Shown in pieces: positions 5,233 to 51,844 of a stretch of 64,000 bases of DNA (positions are counted from its first letter, which is position 1; every line of letters begins with the position of its first letter). The position numbers and the translations under genes were made by a program. Origin of the DNA: Bacteroidota bacterium (lineage in GTDB: Bacteria > Bacteroidota > Bacteroidia > CAILMK01); contig JABDBQ010000010.1 in the NCBI GenBank assembly GCA_013288555.1, forward strand, positions 2,030 through 66,029, in the 5' to 3' direction. The notes beneath the pieces were generated by a model that made no database searches, had not been told where the DNA came from, and saw nothing but the letters and a program-made list of their open reading frames with translations.

Positions 5233-5916
5233 ATGATCCCAAATATCTTTTGTATTGATACTTCCCTGGAAGTATGTTCTGTAGCTGTCGGCGAATTTTA
5301 TGCGGAAGAAACCGGGCATAATATCCATTCTTCGAGGCTCAATATGGTTATTGATAAGCTCATGAAATCAGCCGGATTAAATCTTGATGAAATTGATGCC
5401 ATTTGTGTTGACAAAGGGCCTGGGTCTTATACGGGACTACGAATTGGGGTATCAACAGCCAAAGGATTGTGTTATGCCCTTGATAAGCCTTTGATCAGCA
5501 CCAACACCCTGCAAACAATGGCCTATTATTATAAAACTCTTTCAAGTTTAGATAAAGATCAGCTTTTATGCCCAATGATTGATGCACGCCGACTGGAAGT
5601 TTATTATGCCTTGTTCGACAATGACTTAAAATTTTTCAGGGAAACCCAGACGGGTATTATTGATGAAAGTTTTTTAGAGGACATTCTATCCGAAAAACAA
5701 TTATTGTTTTTGGGTAATGGCGCTTCAAAATGCAAACCATTTTTATCCTCGCATCCGAATGCCATTTTCCCCGATCTGGAAATATATCCATCTGCAAAAG
5801 CGATGATGTCCTTGGCAATTCAAAAATATGAACAAAAAGATTTTGAAGATATCTTTAGCTTTGAACCGTTTTACCTGAAAGACTTTTATTTTGCAACACC
5901 GTTGAAGAAGGAGTAA
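5233..5916 (+). CDS. tsaB: tRNA threonylcarbamoyladenosine (t6A) biosynthesis protein TsaB
   Basis: YeaZ/TsaB signature GPGSYTGLRIGVSTAKGL. 227 aa. Confidence 0.85.
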   Translation: MIPNIFCIDTSLEVCSVAVGEFYAEETGHNIHSSRLNMVIDKLMKSAGLNLDEIDAICVDKGPGSYTGLRIGVSTAKGLCYALDKPLISTNTLQTMAYYYKTLSSLDKDQLLCPMIDARRLEVYYALFDNDLKFFRETQTGIIDESFLEDILSEKQLLFLGNGASKCKPFLSSHPNAIFPDLEIYPSAKAMMSLAIQKYEQKDFEDIFSFEPFYLKDFYFATPLKKE

Positions 5917-6022
5917 GAAGTGAGAGGTGAGAAGTAAGAAGTAAAACGTTACACCGAATCATAATAACCAAATTTCAAATTTCAAATCACAAATCACCAA
6001 TCACAAATCACAAATTACAATA
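5904..6022. repeat. Two adjacent heptamer-periodic arrays (RAGWRAG-type words, then YWCAAAT x8)
   Basis: 5904-5945: gaagaag gagtaag aagtgag aggtgag aagtaag aagtaaa. 5967-6022: accaaat ttcaaat ttcaaat cacaaat caccaat cacaaat cacaaat tacaata. Together they span the tsaB stop to the next start codon. Confidence 0.85.
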
Positions 6023-14288: not shown

Positions 14289-14306
14289 TCAATTTGAAAA
14301 TTTGGA

Positions 14307-14343
14307 AATGAGGCAATTTGAAAATGAATTTCATTGCCTCATT
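14307..14343. terminator. Hairpin between convergent genes (11-bp perfect stem AATGAGGCAAT / ATTGCCTCATT, 15-nt loop)
   Basis: Arms at 14307-14317 and 14333-14343. The right arm overlaps the stop codon of the minus-strand ORF ending at 14339. There is no strong U-tract, so terminator function is inferred. Confidence 0.5.
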
Positions 14344-15790
14344 GTCTTATTGGCTCATTTTCAAATAGTTTTTCAATTTCATTTAGTAACCAGATGGCGT
14401 TGACAACGTTTTTGGTTTCGATCACCGTTTGCTTCAAGGCTTTGATTTTATTATTGTTGTGCCTGCGCTCATAAGGCAGCATGATTTTATACACAAAGGC
14501 TTTCCGGGCAAATTTCAGCAGGTTGCTATATGTATCAAAAGTATCGGTTGAAATAAGTTTGTTCCTGCTGAGATAGGCTTTGAATGTGGTAATTAATGCA
14601 AAAAAAGACTCTTCCTCATCCAGTTCAAAATAGATTTTGAGCAGCATGGACTTAGAATCCAGGTTATAGTAAACGTCCTTAAAATCAACAGATTGCAATA
14701 AGCGGGTTGCTTTTTTATATTCCCTGGTTTCGTAATAATAGTTGGCCAGGTTATACGTATAGGCGTTTTCACGAACTTCTCCGGGCAATTCCGGTTTCAG
14801 CTCATTAATGATCTTATAGGTCCACTCATGATCTCCCAAACGCAAAGCAATAGAAACCATGTTTTTCAAATCCCACTGCAGGTTTTTGTTATTTGCCTTC
14901 ATAAGCCCTATCTCATGCATATATTTATATATATCAAGCAATTCATTGTAAAACTTTGACACACCGCTGTTTACTTTCCTTATACAATAGTTTTGAAGGT
15001 ATCCGTATAGAGACCGTTGTTCGTCCTGTTCAAAAAGTTGAATATGCTTAGTAACGTCATCTTTCAAAACATTAAAATGCTCCATATTATTGGGGTCCTT
15101 GAGCATAACCAGAATACGGTAATAAATTGAAATGGAAGGTATTACGGTATACTTTTCAAAATTTAATTTTACGATTTCCAATAACTCATCCAGCATGTTA
15201 AATTCATAATCTATGGCCAGAATGCGTTTCCGGTTCATCATTTCACAACTGTCCCTGAGTTTGGCAGATAAATAAAAGATATCCAGCTGATCCACTTTTT
15301 TCTGAAGGCTTTCATCCCCTTGTATTCTCGCCTGATCAAGGAAAATTTTATCAGCCTCCGCCTGGTACTGGAATTCTTCATAATAATAATTGCTGTCACG
15401 ATATGGCTTTTGACTGCTCATTTCCAGAATATCTTTTTGGACAACAGAATACAACTCTTCCAGTTGATTGACTCTGATATAATTGAGGAGGTTAAGTTTT
15501 TGATTCCATTGCTGTTCTGTATATTGTTCTTCGCTCAGAAACGTCTCCATTAATCGCAGAGATTTATACATCAGATCAGGAATTCTGCGCTCTTCGAAAA
15601 TTTTACCCGGGTAAAGTTTTGAATAGATCTCTTCTTTCGAAACATTGAATTTTCCCGGACAAATCAATTTTACAAAGCCTGTAATCTCCTCATTTTTATT
15701 AAAATATGGCGATTGCAAAAAGTCAAGAAACCTTAATTGCTGCTGCTTATTCAGCTTTTGAAGCGTTTTATAAAATTTGCTCTGTTCCAT
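14339..15790 (-). CDS. Uncharacterised all-alpha TPR-like cytoplasmic protein (partner A of giant T9SS protein)
   Basis: 483 aa with no signal peptide or TM segment, colinear with paralog 20617-22065. Shared blocks include SPYFNKNEE, KLNLLNYIRVN, FYLSAKLRDSCEMMNRKRIL, DEQRSLYGYLQNYCIRKVNSG and FKDVYYNLDSKSMLLKIYFE. TPR-like NLANYYYET...KKAT. Confidence 0.75.
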   Translation of the reverse strand: MEQSKFYKTLQKLNKQQQLRFLDFLQSPYFNKNEEITGFVKLICPGKFNVSKEEIYSKLYPGKIFEERRIPDLMYKSLRLMETFLSEEQYTEQQWNQKLNLLNYIRVNQLEELYSVVQKDILEMSSQKPYRDSNYYYEEFQYQAEADKIFLDQARIQGDESLQKKVDQLDIFYLSAKLRDSCEMMNRKRILAIDYEFNMLDELLEIVKLNFEKYTVIPSISIYYRILVMLKDPNNMEHFNVLKDDVTKHIQLFEQDEQRSLYGYLQNYCIRKVNSGVSKFYNELLDIYKYMHEIGLMKANNKNLQWDLKNMVSIALRLGDHEWTYKIINELKPELPGEVRENAYTYNLANYYYETREYKKATRLLQSVDFKDVYYNLDSKSMLLKIYFELDEEESFFALITTFKAYLSRNKLISTDTFDTYSNLLKFARKAFVYKIMLPYERRHNNNKIKALKQTVIETKNVVNAIWLLNEIEKLFENEPIRQ

Positions 15791-30980: not shown

Positions 30981-31360
30981 GTGAAACATTTTTAAAAATA
31001 TTTTTGCTTATAACTAAATGAATATAAATAAGATAAAAAATATTTTTGGAAATCACCCACCCAGTTTGGTACTTCACTATATATGTATATAAAAGGCGTT
31101 AGGCATCAGGAGTTAGGAGTTAGAGGCTGGCGCAAACAAATTGAACAAAATCCTCTTAATTCTAAAATCCTGTAAATCCTGATTCAGAAAAATATGAAAA
31201 AGATAAACCTTTGCTTTTTGGCATTCTCGATTGATCCCGAGTGCTCGGGACTGTTATTGTCTGATATTTGTCAATGAATTACGTGTAAATAACTAAATTT
31301 CAATAAGCTAAAAAATGAAAAAATGAATTTCCCTGTTAAAACAGTGAGAACACGTGTGCC

Positions 31361-46629: not shown

Positions 46630-47949
46630 ATGACTGAAGATTTTCTACACTTCATCTGGAAATATAAAAATTTCGATGCCAGGTACCTGGAAACAATTGA
46701 TGGAAAGGAAATTAAAATCATTAATTCCGGGGAATACAATACCCATTCAGGGCCAGATTTTTTAAATGCCCAGGTCATTATCGGTGGTACCCACTGGGCG
46801 GGTAATATTGAATTGCATCTGAAAACATCAGACTGGACAGCGCACAATCATTCCAGTGATCCGGCCTATGAAAATGTGATTCTTCATGTTGTATTTGATC
46901 ATGATACCCCTACCGCCATACCTGAAAACAGGCCTTTACTGGCTCTCAAACACCGGATTCACTCAAATACACATGCGAAATTCGAAATCCTGAAAAAACA
47001 GCATAATATCATTCCTTGTGAGCCATTCATTAAAGGTGTAAATGATATTATTGTAACAGGATGGCTTGACAGGATGCTCGCCGAACGGCTCGAATACAAA
47101 ACGGATTATATTAAAAAGCTACTGCATCAAAACAAGAATGACTGGGCAGAAACTGCATACCAACTCACAGGAAGAAATTTCGGTTTCAAAGTAAATGCAG
47201 AACCCTTTGAAAAACTGACCCGAATTATTCCTCACAAGATATTAGCCAGGCACAAAAACAATTTCCCGCAAATTGAAGCCATGCTTTTTGGGCAGGCAGG
47301 CTTTTTACAGGAAGTATACACTGATCCTTATCCTGAAGCCCTTAGAAAGGAATACCGGTTCCTGGCAGGAAAGTATAATTTTACTCCAAACCGAAAATCA
47401 GAATGGAAATTTTTAAGATTAAGACCTGGCAATTTCCCTACGATCAGGATTTCGCAATTTGCCGCCTTAATTCATAAATCAGAACATTTGTTTTCTAAAA
47501 TACTGGAAGTGAATGATATCAAAAAAGCCATTTCATTCTTTGATGTTAAAGCCAGCGATTACTGGAAAACGCATTATACTTTTGATACGCCCGCAGCATC
47601 AAAATCTTCAGGCGCGTTAGGGAAAGACAGCATTTATAACCTGCTAATCAATACGGTAGCACCTTTACTATTCAGCTATGGCCATATAAAAAACGAGCCA
47701 AAATATAAAGATGTAGCCATGAATCTCCTCGAAAACTGCCCGAAGGAATTGAATACTATCACCAAATCTAGTGTTAACCTGGGTTTTCAAAATAAAAATG
47801 CTTATGATTCGCAGGCGCTCATTCATCTCAGGAATGAACACTGCAGCAAACAATTATGTTTAACTTGTGGTATCGGGGCAGCGATACTAAAAACAGAAGA
47901 CTCTGGTTTAACCAAAAACAATATTCAATTAACGGGCTTTTTGGCCTGA
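46630..47949 (+). CDS. DUF2851 family protein
   Basis: MTEDFLHFIWKYK...SG.YN.HSGPDF.NA...I.G..W.GN(I/V)E.H.K.SDW..H.H is the characteristic N-terminus. C-terminal C..CLTCGIG. Confidence 0.7.
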   Translation: MTEDFLHFIWKYKNFDARYLETIDGKEIKIINSGEYNTHSGPDFLNAQVIIGGTHWAGNIELHLKTSDWTAHNHSSDPAYENVILHVVFDHDTPTAIPENRPLLALKHRIHSNTHAKFEILKKQHNIIPCEPFIKGVNDIIVTGWLDRMLAERLEYKTDYIKKLLHQNKNDWAETAYQLTGRNFGFKVNAEPFEKLTRIIPHKILARHKNNFPQIEAMLFGQAGFLQEVYTDPYPEALRKEYRFLAGKYNFTPNRKSEWKFLRLRPGNFPTIRISQFAALIHKSEHLFSKILEVNDIKKAISFFDVKASDYWKTHYTFDTPAASKSSGALGKDSIYNLLINTVAPLLFSYGHIKNEPKYKDVAMNLLENCPKELNTITKSSVNLGFQNKNAYDSQALIHLRNEHCSKQLCLTCGIGAAILKTEDSGLTKNNIQLTGFLA

Positions 47950-47994
47950 AACTTGCCTTTTGCTGGTAAATTATTATATATTTGTAACTGATTT

Positions 47995-48225
47995 ATGTTA
48001 GTAATCGATAAAATTAAAGGCTTCTGCGAACTGAGAATGTTCGGCGTTTTATCGCTCATTGGTGAGCGTATGGGTATTGCGACTTCTAAAATCAGGATGT
48101 TTTTTATTTATATTACTTTCCTCGGTTTTGGCTCACCCATATTTATTTACCTTATTGTGGCCTTTGTCATCAACATTGGCAAATATGTCCGCGCACGCAA
48201 AAGAAACCCGGTCTGGGATTTTTAA
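47995..48225 (+). CDS. PspC domain-containing small membrane protein
   Basis: 76 aa. GV...IGERMGI..SKIRMFFI followed by a TM helix. Confidence 0.55.
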   Translation: MLVIDKIKGFCELRMFGVLSLIGERMGIATSKIRMFFIYITFLGFGSPIFIYLIVAFVINIGKYVRARKRNPVWDF

Positions 48226-48265
48226 GTTAATTAGTTGTAAGTAGTTAGTAATTAGTGGTCAGTTA
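48224..48265. repeat. Heptamer array (TNAGTNR x6), left flank of the four-helix-bundle gene
   Basis: aagttaa ttagttg taagtag ttagtaa ttagtgg tcagtta. Reverse complement of the word family at 48650-48698. Confidence 0.85.
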
Positions 48266-48285
48266 AAATCCAAATGAATTAGCAC

Positions 48286-48636
48286 ATGGTAATTCAAAAA
48301 TTTGAAGATATAATTGCCTAGCAAAAAGCAAAGGATTTGGCTAAGGAAATTTATTTAACATTTGGACCTTTAAAAGACTTCGGATTCAGAGACCAGATAA
48401 CAAGGGCCGCAATTTCCATATCAAATAATATTGCGGAAGGGTTTGATAGAGGTAGTAATGCAGATTTTCGCCGATTTTTATATTTTTCACTTGGCTCCTG
48501 TAGTGAAGTTAGATCAATGTTATATGTTGCAGAAGAGTTGAACTATATTAGTTTAGAAAAACGTAATTTATTAATTGAACAAAGCTCAGAAATTTCCAAA
48601 GTTATTAGTGGATTTATCAAATCAATTTCCAAGTAG
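48286..48636 (+). pseudogene. Four-helix-bundle protein (23S rRNA intervening-sequence protein family) with an in-frame TAG at 48319-48321
   Basis: From ATG 48286 it reads MVIQKFEDIIA*QKAKDLAKEIYLTF.... The family N-terminus is normally ...(V/A)WQKA..L...IY, so TGG(Trp)->TAG. The downstream part (track ORF from TTG 48337) has RDQITRAAISISNNIAEGFDRGSNADFRRFLYFSLGSCSEV, the family core. Confidence 0.7.
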
Positions 48637-48649
48637 TCATAACAAATGA

Positions 48650-48698
48650 TTACTAACTACTAACTACTATTTACTGATTACTAACTACTGACTACAAT
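48650..48698. repeat. Heptamer array (YTACTRA x7), right flank of the four-helix-bundle gene
   Basis: ttactaa ctactaa ctactat ttactga ttactaa ctactga ctacaat. Inverted relative to 48224-48265. Confidence 0.85.
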
Positions 48699-50206
48699 TA
48701 AATAATCCTGAACATCCTATCCCACCTGATGGTCTTGTACCATGGCACATCATGATCGAGTGATAACCAGATAATAAGTGGTTTGCCAACGATATGATCT
48801 TCAGGAACAAAACCCCAGTATCGACTATCTAAAGAATTATCCCGGTTATCGCCCATCATGAAATAATAATCCATTTTCATGACATATTCTTTAATGGGTT
48901 TGCCATTCAGCAATACCTGATTTCCAACAAGAGTCAGTGATGGATTTTGTTCATATTCCCTGATGGCTTTTTGATATGTATAATAATTTCTGACTGTCAT
49001 ACGAATATGATCACCTTTGCGGGGAATATAAATCGGGCCATAAAAATCTTTGCTCCAGTCTATTCCCGGATATCCCGGAAATAAACCTGCAGTAGGTGTT
49101 ATGGTCTTTGGGTCAGTAATAATCTGAACATCCTTAATACCCGGCCATGTTTTTAATTCTTTGGCCGCATTGGCTGTCATCAGAATTCTAATGGCATCCA
49201 CTTCACCGGTTGCAGGGTCTGAATCAATACTTCTGAAATCAAGGACAGAATCATTCGCATCAATGCCCAGCTTCCTGAACTTTGCCAGCAGGCCATTTCT
49301 CCTCATATGTTTGGAATGCTGATATTCAGCAATTTCATCACACAGATCATTGTATTCTTCTTTATTAGACCATATTACGCGGTATAATTGTTGCCCATTT
49401 GGAGGATTGCCCAATATCTTTCCATTTATAAATGTTTCCCGGTTCACAATCTGCAAACTATCACCCGGAATGGCAATACATCTTTTAATCAGGTTTTCTT
49501 TTTTATCGACCGGATATCCGGGATTTTCGGCAGGAGCGTTGAATACTACTATATCTCCATTTTTGATTTTTTCCAATCCAGGCAATCGGTAATAGGGTAA
49601 TGATGGCCAGTCTAAAAATGATTGTCCGCCTATAAGCGGCATTGTGTTATGAACCAATGGCAAAGCCAATGGGGTCATTGGAATCCTGGCTCCAAAATTG
49701 ATTTTAGAAACCATTAAATAATCATCCACCTTTAAAGTTTCCTCCATGGATGGAGTTGGTATCGTATAAGCTTCAATGCAGCCAGATCTAATGACCGTTG
49801 CCGCAATCATTGCAAATATTACTGCATCAACCCACTCACGACCCAATGTTCTTACATAGGCCGTCCGAGCATAATCTGGACCATAAAATTTCTCGTTCTT
49901 TGAAAAGCCTAAATAAGGAAAGTATAAAAACCCACCGATTACTGCAAGTCCCTGCTCTGCCAGGCTGAACTTACCAAAGCATTTGGCCATTTCTACAAGA
50001 ATCACAAAGGCAAAAAGAAGGTTAAGCCCCGGCAGGAAAATAAAAATAATCCACCAAAGAGGTTTTTCTATTATCCTGAGGATGGTAATTTCATTATAAA
50101 CAGGGACAAAAGCTTCCCATCCTTTTTTACCTGCTTTCTGGAAAACCTTGTAAAATGCGAGGCCATTCACAATATAGAATAAGGCCAGATAGATGATAAA
50201 TACCAT
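48698..50206 (-). CDS. lepB: Signal peptidase I, long Bacteroidota form with N-terminal multi-pass membrane (DUF5684-like) region, copy 1
   Basis: Catalytic Ser box TIPTPSMEETL, Lys box LIKRCIAIPGD and C-terminal GDNRDNSLDSRYWGFVPEDHIVGKP. Confidence 0.9.
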   Translation of the reverse strand: MVFIIYLALFYIVNGLAFYKVFQKAGKKGWEAFVPVYNEITILRIIEKPLWWIIFIFLPGLNLLFAFVILVEMAKCFGKFSLAEQGLAVIGGFLYFPYLGFSKNEKFYGPDYARTAYVRTLGREWVDAVIFAMIAATVIRSGCIEAYTIPTPSMEETLKVDDYLMVSKINFGARIPMTPLALPLVHNTMPLIGGQSFLDWPSLPYYRLPGLEKIKNGDIVVFNAPAENPGYPVDKKENLIKRCIAIPGDSLQIVNRETFINGKILGNPPNGQQLYRVIWSNKEEYNDLCDEIAEYQHSKHMRRNGLLAKFRKLGIDANDSVLDFRSIDSDPATGEVDAIRILMTANAAKELKTWPGIKDVQIITDPKTITPTAGLFPGYPGIDWSKDFYGPIYIPRKGDHIRMTVRNYYTYQKAIREYEQNPSLTLVGNQVLLNGKPIKEYVMKMDYYFMMGDNRDNSLDSRYWGFVPEDHIVGKPLIIWLSLDHDVPWYKTIRWDRMFRII

Positions 50207-50262: not shown

Positions 50263-50332
50263 GTCAGGGATCAGGAGTAAGTGATAAGGGGTAAGTCCAA
50301 TACTAATGCCTTTCGCCTTAAGCCTTACGACT
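50263..50332. repeat. Heptamer array (~10 units) between lepB copies 1 and 2
   Basis: gtcaggg atcagga gtaagtg ataaggg gtaagtc caatact aatgcct ttcgcct taagcct tacgact. The first half is the reverse-complement 'sentence' of 37714-37746 minus one unit. Confidence 0.8.
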
Positions 50333-50335
50333 AAA

Positions 50336-51844
50336 TTAAATAACCTTAAACATCCTGTTCCAGCGAACCAGTTTATACCAGGGAACATCATGATCCAATG
50401 ATAGCCAGATAATAAGCGGCTTACCCACAACATGGTCCTCTGGAACAAATCCCCAGTAGCGACTGTCTTCAGAATTGTCACGGTTATCGCCCATCATGAA
50501 ATAATAATCCATTTTCATAACGTATTCTTTAATCGGCTGCCCGTCAAGCATTACCTGGTTGCCAACCAATGTCAGAGAAGGATTGTTTTCATAATCCCTT
50601 ATGGCTTTTTGATAAACATAATAATTGCTTACAGTCATTGGGATATGATCGCCTTTTTTTGGAATATATAAAGGGCCGTAATTGTCTTTGCTCCATTGCA
50701 TTCCAGGAAAATCAGGAAATACCTTTCCGTCCACACTATCTTCTTTAGGTTCTGTCATGACTTGAACATCTTTAATTTCCGACCATGTTTTTAGTTGTTT
50801 GGCGGCATTGGGAGTCATCAGAATTTTCATACCAATCCTTGCTCCCGTCTTAGGATCTATTTCTGGACCACGTATATCCTGTATCCTTTCGCTGGCATCA
50901 ATCCCCAAATCTTTAAATTTCATAAGTTGTCCGCCAATCAGGTATTTGTGTGAAACTTGAAAAGATTCAAGTTCATTATAAAGATCATTATATAGAGTTG
51001 TATCTGACCACAATACTCGATACCCTTCTTCAATATTAGCTGGGTCGGGCAAAATTTTACCATTGACAAATATTGATCTTTCTATAATTTGAATTGAATC
51101 TCCAGGGGCGGCAACACATCTCTTGATATAATAATCCTTTCGGTCTACTGGTCTGCCAAGATTTTCAGCAGGGAAATTAAATACTACCAGGTCATTGTTA
51201 TGTATTTTTTGAAATCCCGGAAACCTGAAATATGGGAGTTGCAACCATGTTACATAAGATGGCCCGCCAAAATATGGCATCATGTTATGGGTAAATGGAA
51301 AACCAATTGGGGTCATCGGAATTCTAGGCCCATATGATAGTTTCGAGACCATAACGTAGTCATCAACCATTAATGTTTCTTCACTTGATGGAGTCGGAAT
51401 AGTAAAGAATTCAAACACAAAAGACCTAATAAATACAATGATCAATACCACACTTAAAAAAGTACCAATCCAATCCAAAGCAGGTGACCGATTATTATTA
51501 ATTTTTGCATATTCAGATCCATAAAAATTTTCATTTGTTGAGAATCCTAAGTAAGGGATATAAATAAATGAAAATAGAACGCCTAAAACATGCTGACCGA
51601 ATTTTAACCTCCCAAAACATTTCAGAAGTTCAACGGCAACCACGACACCAAAAAAATAATTTAGTCCAGGGATAAATAAGAATATTATCCACCAGGCAGG
51701 TTTGCCAACTATCTTTAGCAGAGTAATTTCCCCATAGATTGGAATAAAAGCCTTCCAAGTATTTTCCGACGCCTTTTGATAAATTCTAAAGAGAAGTACA
51801 CCTCTTACGAAATAAATACCAACCAGAAAAATTAGAAATAGCAT
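50336..51844 (-). CDS. lepB: Signal peptidase I, long form, copy 2
   Basis: TIPTPSSEETL, YIKRCVAAPGD, GDNRDNSEDSRYWGFVPEDHVVGKP. Confidence 0.9.
   Translation of the reverse strand: MLFLIFLVGIYFVRGVLLFRIYQKASENTWKAFIPIYGEITLLKIVGKPAWWIIFLFIPGLNYFFGVVVAVELLKCFGRLKFGQHVLGVLFSFIYIPYLGFSTNENFYGSEYAKINNNRSPALDWIGTFLSVVLIIVFIRSFVFEFFTIPTPSSEETLMVDDYVMVSKLSYGPRIPMTPIGFPFTHNMMPYFGGPSYVTWLQLPYFRFPGFQKIHNNDLVVFNFPAENLGRPVDRKDYYIKRCVAAPGDSIQIIERSIFVNGKILPDPANIEEGYRVLWSDTTLYNDLYNELESFQVSHKYLIGGQLMKFKDLGIDASERIQDIRGPEIDPKTGARIGMKILMTPNAAKQLKTWSEIKDVQVMTEPKEDSVDGKVFPDFPGMQWSKDNYGPLYIPKKGDHIPMTVSNYYVYQKAIRDYENNPSLTLVGNQVMLDGQPIKEYVMKMDYYFMMGDNRDNSEDSRYWGFVPEDHVVGKPLIIWLSLDHDVPWYKLVRWNRMFKVI

Follow-up and report, generated by a model that had tools for sequence, protein, structure and literature searches.

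The DNA analyzed here is a stretch of 64,000 nucleotides (nt), hereafter the window, corresponding to positions 2,030 to 66,029 of the forward strand of contig JABDBQ010000010.1 in the metagenome-assembled genome (MAG) of a Bacteroidota bacterium (GCA_013288555.1). Located between window positions 48223 and 48698 is a gene for a four-helix-bundle protein of the PF05635 family, which is enclosed by two inverted arrays of tandem heptamers, referred to below as the arms. The family was first met inside the intervening sequences (IVS) of ribosomal RNA (rRNA). On balance, we favor a reading in which the locus is an IVS-type, armed cassette that resides outside of rRNA and whose arms form an RNA stem. 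Its anatomy and history, as described below, are put forward with high confidence.

The left arm (48223-48265, plus strand) was recognized from the sequence itself, from Tandem Repeats Finder, and from inverted repeats. It is composed of six TNAGTNR heptamers, namely TAAGTTA (48223-48229) and, following a single spacer base, TTAGTTG, TAAGTAG, TTAGTAA, TTAGTGG, and TCAGTTA (48231-48265). The right arm (48650-48698, plus strand) contains seven heptamers of the form YTACTRA, which is the left-arm unit in reverse complement, in the order TTACTAA, CTACTAA, CTACTAT, TTACTGA, TTACTAA, CTACTGA, and CTACAAT. Within it, the residues at ~48665-48678 constitute a 14-nt (two-unit) insertion that is missing from both sister lineages described below. 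The arms are AT-rich and separated by ~380 nt, and no T tail follows them. Their complementarity is 76-81% across stretches of 30-37 nt, in several alternative registers. In the RNA fold calculated for 48215-48705, an outer stem pairs residues ~48231-48258 with ~48665-48701, and this stem is present in both the minimum free energy and the centroid structures. The duplex energy of the two 110-nt flanks is -49.5 kcal/mol, a value equalled by 7 of 600 control genes from the same genome and thus in the first percentile. No Rfam family was matched within 47800-48900, and the region from 48226 to 48700 contains no intrinsic (rho-independent) terminator, that is, a GC-rich hairpin followed by a run of T residues. 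The cassette takes up the entire 472-nt spacer between a PspC-like gene on the plus strand and a convergent lepB gene on the minus strand, and the stop codons of both neighbors (48223-48225 and 48698-48700) fall within the outermost arm units.

The ancestral reading frame of the four-helix-bundle gene extends from 48286 to 48642 on the plus strand (118 codons and a stop). Profile matches were computed for a product of 117 residues with the TAG at 48319-48321 read as Trp. The region from 48286 to 48636 matches PF05635 over positions 1-106 of 106 with an E value of 5e-33 and a score of 113.9 bits (cut-off 33.8), and it also matches TIGR02436, "four helix bundle protein", at 110 bits (cut-off 24). 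By sequence, the closest proteins of known structure are 2GSC (Xanthomonas XCC0516, E 3.5e-11) and 2RLD, both of which were deposited with five chains. A homopentameric ring has been reported for the Xanthomonas S23p protein (PMC4990558). The only 23S gene of the genome is situated on another contig (C42:5690-8563, 2874 nt) and carries no insert. The first-pass annotation, made from the letters alone, had claimed membership in this family, inverted heptamer arms, and the geometry of an IVS, with a stem enclosing an open reading frame (ORF), outside of any rRNA gene. The full-length matches to both profiles, the six and seven units that pair in the minimum free energy structure, and the uninterrupted 23S gene bear it out on each of these points.

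The reading frame of the focal gene is not intact. Codon 12 is an amber TAG (48319-48321) in place of a nearly invariant residue, Trp 12, which is Trp in 25 of 26 close homologues. The orthologues are intact, with codon 12 being TGG (L020) or TGC (L022-L024). The annotation had placed the amber codon exactly at the conserved Trp and had taken TAG to be a normal stop in this DNA, and both statements hold. TAG ends 199 of the 1037 ORFs of at least 300 codons in this genome (19%), and no tRNA with the anticodon CUA is present among the 33 tRNAs found. A reassignment of the stop codon was rejected on these two grounds. Because the amber sits exactly at the conserved Trp, the focal gene is inactivated or, at best, expressed from the internal TTG at 48337 (Leu 18) without its first 17 residues, as had been proposed. 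The residual ORF predicted from that codon (48337-48636, plus strand) has 99 codons and lacks most of helix 1. A second lineage-specific TAG (48634-48636, plus strand) lies two codons ahead of the old stop, TAA 48640-48642, such that the frame is two codons shorter at its end; the corresponding codon is CAG in L020 and AAA in L022. This second TAG is harmless, since the length of the C-terminal tail varies across the family.

It is very unlikely, in our view, that the gene is still functional, with the first TAG being an artefact of assembly or consensus calling or a minor allele, or being bypassed by readthrough or by a restart at TTG 48337. There is almost no excess amino-acid change on the window branch, as such a reading would have it: besides the two TAG codons, I81V is the only clear replacement. 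Furthermore, only one DNA run contains the sequence, in the form of assembler contigs in which minor alleles are not resolvable, and that run is probably the source of the MAG. Those contigs nonetheless agree with the TAG, with no variant, and the substitution is untypical of assembly error. The codon is an ordinary stop in this genome with no suppressor tRNA found, and a restart at the TTG would drop the conserved FEDIxAWQKA start of helix 1. Four other copies of the family, moreover, are broken independently (one by TAA and three by frameshifts) in a genome of which 60% is occupied by long ORFs. The presence of I81V as the sole clear change on the window branch indicates that the conversion of TGG to TAG at Trp 12 in the window's lineage was recent.

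The MAG (2.84 Mb, 102 contigs, 67.5% complete) contains six loci of the family, out of ten first-look candidates, and none of these is in rRNA. All six are enclosed by inverted tandem arrays, each with its own unit, in keeping with the proposal that family members throughout the genome would be so flanked. For five of the six copies, the duplex energy of the flanks is at or beyond the first percentile of the 600 control genes. The focal copy (C10; window 48286-48642) with its TNAGTNR units is broken by TAG, and copy C14 (C14:6319-6681, minus strand; units AGAGCGA / CGCTCTT) is broken by TAA. Single-base frameshifts interrupt copy C4 (C4:94627-94977, plus strand; CAGGGAT / CCCTGAT), copy C9 (C9:11180-11531, plus strand; 8-mer units CAATGAGG / ATTGCCTC), and copy C70 (C70:4188-4554, minus strand; ATCAATG / CATTGAT together with a GC-rich hairpin). 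The sole intact copy is C17 (C17:12820-13185; GAAATTT / AAATTTC). The best pair of paralogues displays an amino-acid sequence identity of ~69% over the aligned part, and no arms are shared between copies. For the frameshifted C4 copy, the best match is 76% identical, and no copy was found in a sister lineage.

Five of the six copies thus carry independent lesions, namely a TAG, a TAA, and three 1-nt frameshifts. Assembly error is an unlikely cause of these, because 60% of the genome consists of ORFs of at least 300 codons. Given that stops occur in only ~3-16% of the copies in samples of relatives, as compared with five of six broken here, this lineage seems to be losing the whole family, with selection relaxed across it. 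A loss of such breadth would fit a shared function or a shared partner. The focal copy is a fresh pseudogene, and an ordinary one within its class.

Two intact proteins identified in a database search, P0001 and P0002, are 95% and 91% identical, respectively, to the read-through product. The gene order on both orthologue contigs is the same, namely pyrF, DUF2851, PspC-like, four-helix-bundle gene, lepB, and lepB, which argues that these are orthologous cassettes in sister lineages. Across the three lineages, the pairwise ratio of nonsynonymous to synonymous substitution rates (dN/dS) for the four-helix-bundle gene is 0.06-0.08, with dS values of 0.30-1.16. For the flanking genes, the ratios are 0.04-0.05 (PspC) and 0.06 (LepB), with dS values of 0.41-1.9. 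Because the ratio resembles those of the flanking genes, the cassette has long been passed on vertically at this site, with its protein subject to purifying selection as strong as that on the housekeeping neighbors.

The arms are constrained as well. Relative to the nearest and the farther sister, respectively, the p-distances for the arms are 0.05-0.13 and 0.23-0.26 (0.05 and 0.23 for the left arm alone), as compared with 0.17 and 0.35 for third codon positions. The fastest-evolving part of the cassette is the spacer before the ATG, with p-distances of 0.24 and 0.50. A 22-nt core of the left arm is identical across all three orthologues. By these comparisons, the arms diverge at a slower pace than third codon positions, and they gain or lose whole units.

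After the PspC-like gene, neither the gene nor the arrays are present in ten genomes related at family to order rank or in three metagenomic contigs whose DUF2851 proteins are 70-75% identical to that of the window. In a family-level relative (L019), the two convergent genes nearly abut. The locus is rearranged and has no cassette in a closer relative (metagenome contig Ga0134126_10000792, L138:1729-1815), in which the DUF2851 protein is 88% identical. There, seven AGGCGTA-type units and then five AATTCCT units, which are solo and non-complementary, come after the PspC-like gene, and the convergent DUF2851 gene comes next. One old gain, in the common ancestor of three or more lineages, explains the pattern of filled and empty sites. 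The filled and empty sites compared gave no hint that the cassette has moved recently. The recent mobility that had been suggested for it is thus not upheld: three related lineages carry the cassette at this site and every deeper relative lacks it, as one old gain followed by purifying selection would leave it.

These comparisons also bear on whether the cassette is a mobile element at the level of DNA, with the arrays serving as terminal inverted repeats or as single-strand hairpin sites for an enzyme acting in trans and the gene being cargo or a cofactor of mobility. Its inverted termini, the filled and empty sites at deeper divergence, and the scatter, suggestive of horizontal transfer, of relatives of 55-70% identity over Bacteroidota, Patescibacteria (the candidate phyla radiation, CPR), and beta- and gammaproteobacteria would all agree with such an element, and mobility is an old hypothesis for IVS (PMC4990558). 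We consider it improbable here. The cassette contains no transposase or recombinase, and no target-site duplication was seen at the ends of the arms. Within the genome, arms are never shared between copies and no pair of copies is close in sequence, the best being ~69% identical. Finally, the focal copy has remained in place through a dS of ~1 under purifying selection, and a single gain accounts for the distribution at that site.

We return to the armed cassette and its relatives at greater distance, which were examined in two samples. The first is composed of 79 loci of the focal subfamily, with identities of 55-70%, from Bacteroidota classes, Patescibacteria, one betaproteobacterium, and one gammaproteobacterium; the second is composed of 29 loci of the subfamily of C17. 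In the focal subfamily, 73 loci against 5 have NAGT words before the gene and the complement of these words behind it, and the words of the C17 subfamily have a polarity of 26:0. A logo built from 308 periodic steps gives the unit of the focal subfamily as AGT[AC][GA]T[AC] (that is, T-M-A-G-T-M-R), whereas the units of the C17 subfamily are of the ATTG/TTGG/TTGT type. The unit words differ between the subfamilies with Mann-Whitney p values of 2e-10 and 3e-12. Because the polarity is fixed and the unit is specific to the subfamily across many phyla, the arms are most likely part of the cassette, with a constraint on their sequence and not only on their pairing. Indeed, the unit is kept even though synonymous sites are saturated, which suggests that something reads the sequence, a constraint on pairing alone being insufficient.

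Genes 55-61% identical to the focal gene occur in CPR MAGs of Jorgensenbacteria, Patescibacteria, Berkelbacteria, and Saccharibacteria (L078, L096, L097, L088, and L099). Their inverted arms are built of 8-9-nt units of the TATAAAGTC type in which the AAGT core is kept. Copies outside of the phylum are also found in Azovibrio (L052) and Glaciecola (L092). The CPR and proteobacterial copies point to a transfer of the gene together with its arms across phyla.

Genomes rich in TMAGTNR arrays were also counted among 400 genomes of the phylum, with statistics that ignore phylogeny. Such genomes make up 8 of 35 carriers of the focal subfamily versus 17 of 365 others (odds ratio 6.1, p 6e-4). For carriers of the C17 subfamily, which served as the control, the corresponding counts are 4 of 42 versus 21 of 358 (odds ratio 1.7, p 0.32). 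Since 23 of the 35 carriers of the focal subfamily have no TMAGTNR array at all, we take the link between this subfamily and TMAGTNR-rich genomes as a hint only.

Arrays of this kind are by no means confined to the family genes. The genome contains ~400 arrays of period 7 or 8, belonging to a dozen or more unit families, versus six family genes. In 23 inverted array pairs, the two arrays are at most 120 nt apart and enclose no gene, and every arm type of the six copies is also present elsewhere without a gene. The annotation had supposed that the other heptamer arrays in the window might be solo remnants of such cassettes. This notion was rejected on the numbers, ~400 arrays against six genes with no further recognizable cassette remnants in the genome, and the related lineage with solo arrays after PspC and no cassette likewise speaks against it.

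Within the window, a gene-less hairpin of inverted 8-nt arrays, AATTTGAAA / GAGGCAAT-type versus CATTGCCTC, lies directly after a stop codon at 14291-14359, and two adjacent arrays with unrelated, non-complementary units are found at both 2589-2674 and 5904-6020. These sites indicate that arrays occur in at least three configurations, namely solo, as heterologous pairs, and as inverted pairs. Elsewhere in the genome, three AGGCGTA / CTTACGC inverted pairs (C1:123881-124033, C29:14638-14793, and C39:4837-5002) have the same 94-nt spacing and may be copies of one dispersed repeat element that have their internal sequence in common.

A lineage-specific motif, GGCTGACGCA, lies with constant polarity immediately 3' of arrays whose units are of many kinds. 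Of 71 CTGACGCA sites, 18 abut an array, as compared with 0.4 expected. The motif is present in the loops of gene-less hairpins and in three cassettes (C17, C70, and C9). Its 10-nt form, (T/G)GGCTGACGCA, occurs throughout the genome, for example at C1:6125, C6:82466, C9:11581, C17:12807, C45:11516, and C102:2461, with a variant, GGCTGGCGCA, at window position ~31124-31133. It lies on the 5' side of the loop, often with TGATTCTCTCG after it and sometimes with its own complement, GCGTCAGC, after it. The (T/G)GGCTGACGCA motif was not seen in the cassettes of relatives.

Such abundance raises the alternative that the arrays are generic intergenic features of the host, such as 3'-end hairpins, insulators, or substitutes for terminators, and that the gene merely lands or is tolerated in pre-existing loops. 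In line with this view are the ~400 arrays and 23 gene-less inverted pairs, the gene-less occurrence of each arm type, the array-GGCTGACGCA arrangement common to gene-less hairpins and cassettes C17, C70, and C9, the solo arrays without a cassette right after PspC in the related lineage, and the location of the rRNA copies, likewise at hairpin tips (PMC4990558). Random insertion into symmetric hairpins would not, however, be expected to produce the fixed polarity (73:5 and 26:0), and the unit goes with the protein subfamily in phylum after phylum. Likewise, no hairpin is present at the empty site in the family- to order-level relatives, and the six-fold likelihood of TMAGTNR richness in carriers ties the unit to the gene rather than to the host. 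We thus regard the host-feature explanation as unlikely, and the arms are treated in what follows as parts of the cassette.

How such a cassette might operate can be outlined as follows. The gene lies 60 nt behind the PspC-like gene on the same strand. The scan of the PspC-to-gene interval yielded no promoter or terminator, including within the spacer between the left arm and the ATG (48266-48285, plus strand), where no promoter-like or terminator-like site was found. Because there is no recognizable promoter before it, the gene is probably transcribed by read-through. In the read-through RNA, the arms would pair to form an imperfect stem of ~30-45 base pairs with the gene of ~380 nt in its loop. 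That the RNA stem is the functional form has, in our estimation, an even chance. The stem could then be cut by a double-strand-specific RNase, namely RNase III as for the rRNA copies, an analogy that we find plausible and yet somewhat doubtful. Cutting would free or destroy the cassette RNA, set the 3' ends of the neighboring transcripts, and uncouple the cassette from its neighbors. The conservation of the unit sequence suggests, in addition, a sequence-specific partner that would read it, the simplest candidate for which is the encoded ring protein, similar to the accessory variability determinant (Avd) of diversity-generating retroelements (DGR).

Several considerations weigh against this picture. 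The edge of the whole-cassette fold over shuffled controls, a comparison that the annotation had called for, is in the direction expected yet only moderate (z = -2.7), with 1 of 100 shuffles being equally stable. When duplex energies and G-U counts were compared for sense and antisense strands at eight loci, four went each way; with no strand preference, pairing at the level of RNA is not told apart from pairing at the level of DNA. The arrays clearly have a life of their own, as the ~400 arrays and 23 gene-less hairpins attest. In addition, a purely RNA-level role leaves the strong selection on the protein unexplained, and the stem, the read-through, and the processing are all steps that we infer.

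A broader proposal, which we offer as speculation and deem rather unlikely, would be that Avd-like four-helix-bundle proteins are the sequence-specific partners of tandem heptamer arrays, with one unit family per paralogue. The inverted arrays would then mark the protein's own gene for autoregulation or packaging, the gene-less arrays would be targets in trans, and the 23S IVS would be copies that reside in rRNA. Compatible with this are the pairing of each paralogue in this genome with a single unit family that is also found as gene-less arrays, the conservation of the subfamily-specific units across phyla at saturated divergence with fixed polarity, the strong purifying selection on the protein, and the finding that TMAGTNR-rich genomes are enriched six-fold in carriers of the focal subfamily but not in those of the other.

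The neighbors within 3 kb of the cassette are pyrF, the DUF2851 gene, the PspC-like gene, and two copies of lepB. The PspC-like gene (47995-48225, plus strand) is an ORF for a 76-residue PspC-domain membrane protein, the TAA stop of which (48223-48225) lies within the first arm unit. Its match to PF04024 is weak (E 1.3e-4, under the cut-off), and a look-up for the exact same protein gave no match; its orthologues are 84-89% identical. The downstream, convergent neighbor is a lepB gene (48698-50206, minus strand) encoding signal peptidase I with an N-terminal DUF5684, and its stop codon (48698-48700) is in the last arm unit. It is one of two tandem signal peptidase I paralogues on the minus strand, the other being at 50336-51844, and both have 502 residues and an N-terminal DUF5684. 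The 130-nt spacer between the paralogues contains arrays at 50269-50296 with GATAAGG/AGTAAGT-type units and their complement. The duplication of lepB is common to sister lineages (L022 and L023).

The locus and its relatives join, outside of rRNA, two puzzles that are decades old, namely the role of the ORF-bearing 23S IVS with their S23p proteins and that of the hundreds of heptamer arrays at gene boundaries. They also place constraints on any model, in that the protein is kept over long periods by strong purifying selection, unlike useless cargo of a selfish RNA, the polarity of the arms is fixed, and the unit is tied to the subfamily. Full-text literature searches on the family names returned no paper tying PF05635 genes to inverted arrays outside of rRNA. 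The gene-plus-hairpin package is widespread and apparently undescribed in the literature searched; new here are the selection estimate based on orthologues, the polarity count, and the link between subfamily and unit.

Among known repeats, those of the repetitive extragenic palindrome (REP/REPIN) type with their associated tyrosine transposases (RAYT) and the miniature inverted-repeat transposable elements (MITE) resemble the arms in being dispersed, intergenic inverted repeats that sometimes flank a cognate protein gene. Here, in contrast, the protein has no nuclease or transposase fold, the arms are tandem arrays rather than a fixed palindrome, and the copies differ within the genome. With six different arm units, no near-identical copies, no target-site duplication, and no enzyme gene in the cassette, though an enzyme may act in trans, the set does not have the makeup of a MITE family. 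The arms also resemble the intergenic heptamer repeats described as TAACTGA in Beggiatoaceae, Cyanobacteria, and Bacteroidetes (PMC4679880) and as GGGNATC in Xanthomonas and Nostoc (PMC4692102); the left-arm unit TCAGTTA is the reverse complement of TAACTGA. Both consist of 2-10 short 7-nt units located at gene boundaries, with variable copy number and a patchy spread that includes Bacteroidota. The published arrays are mostly direct and unpaired, with no gene family named (PMC4679880, PMC4692102), whereas those described here are inverted and surround a specific gene.

The Avd protein of the Bordetella phage BPP-1 DGR (PDB 4DWL) is a homologous four-helix bundle that assembles as a pentameric ring and acts together with nucleic acid and reverse transcriptase in a complex, and PF05635 is the commonest domain beside DGR reverse transcriptases (PMC10053308). 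Unlike a DGR, the locus has no reverse transcriptase, template repeat, or variable repeat, and no ORF of reverse transcriptase size lies beside the four-helix-bundle gene among the neighbors within 3 kb. We know of no Avd genes that are bracketed by inverted heptamer arrays.

A close counterpart of the cassette is the ORF-bearing 23S IVS, which is known from helix 45 of Coxiella burnetii and also from Leptospira, Xanthomonas, and Brucella (PMC4990558). The Coxiella IVS combines a gene of the same family with a terminal stem of 28 bp, and its ATG is preceded by tandem heptamers whose number varies among strains; the first repeat is where RNase III cuts, and the ORF is decaying and reported as probably untranslated (PMC4990558). 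In both systems, an S23p/PF05635 ORF is carried in the loop of a long stem of terminal inverted repeats, with a total length of ~430-490 nt. Both have heptamers of variable unit number before the ATG, GACAGAT repeats in Coxiella versus the six TNAGTNR units here, and in both the ORF is prone to decay and has no recognizable promoter of its own, such that its expression would depend on the host transcript. Processing by RNase III has been shown for the Coxiella IVS, whereas for the cassette it is postulated by analogy. A 23S IVS is defined by insertion in helix 9, 25, or 45 of the 23S gene, whereas this cassette sits between convergent protein-coding genes, PspC-like and lepB, whose stops lie in the arms, and both of its arms are heptamer arrays throughout. 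Finally, unlike the ORF of Coxiella, the protein encoded here was long under strong purifying selection, with a dN/dS of ~0.07.

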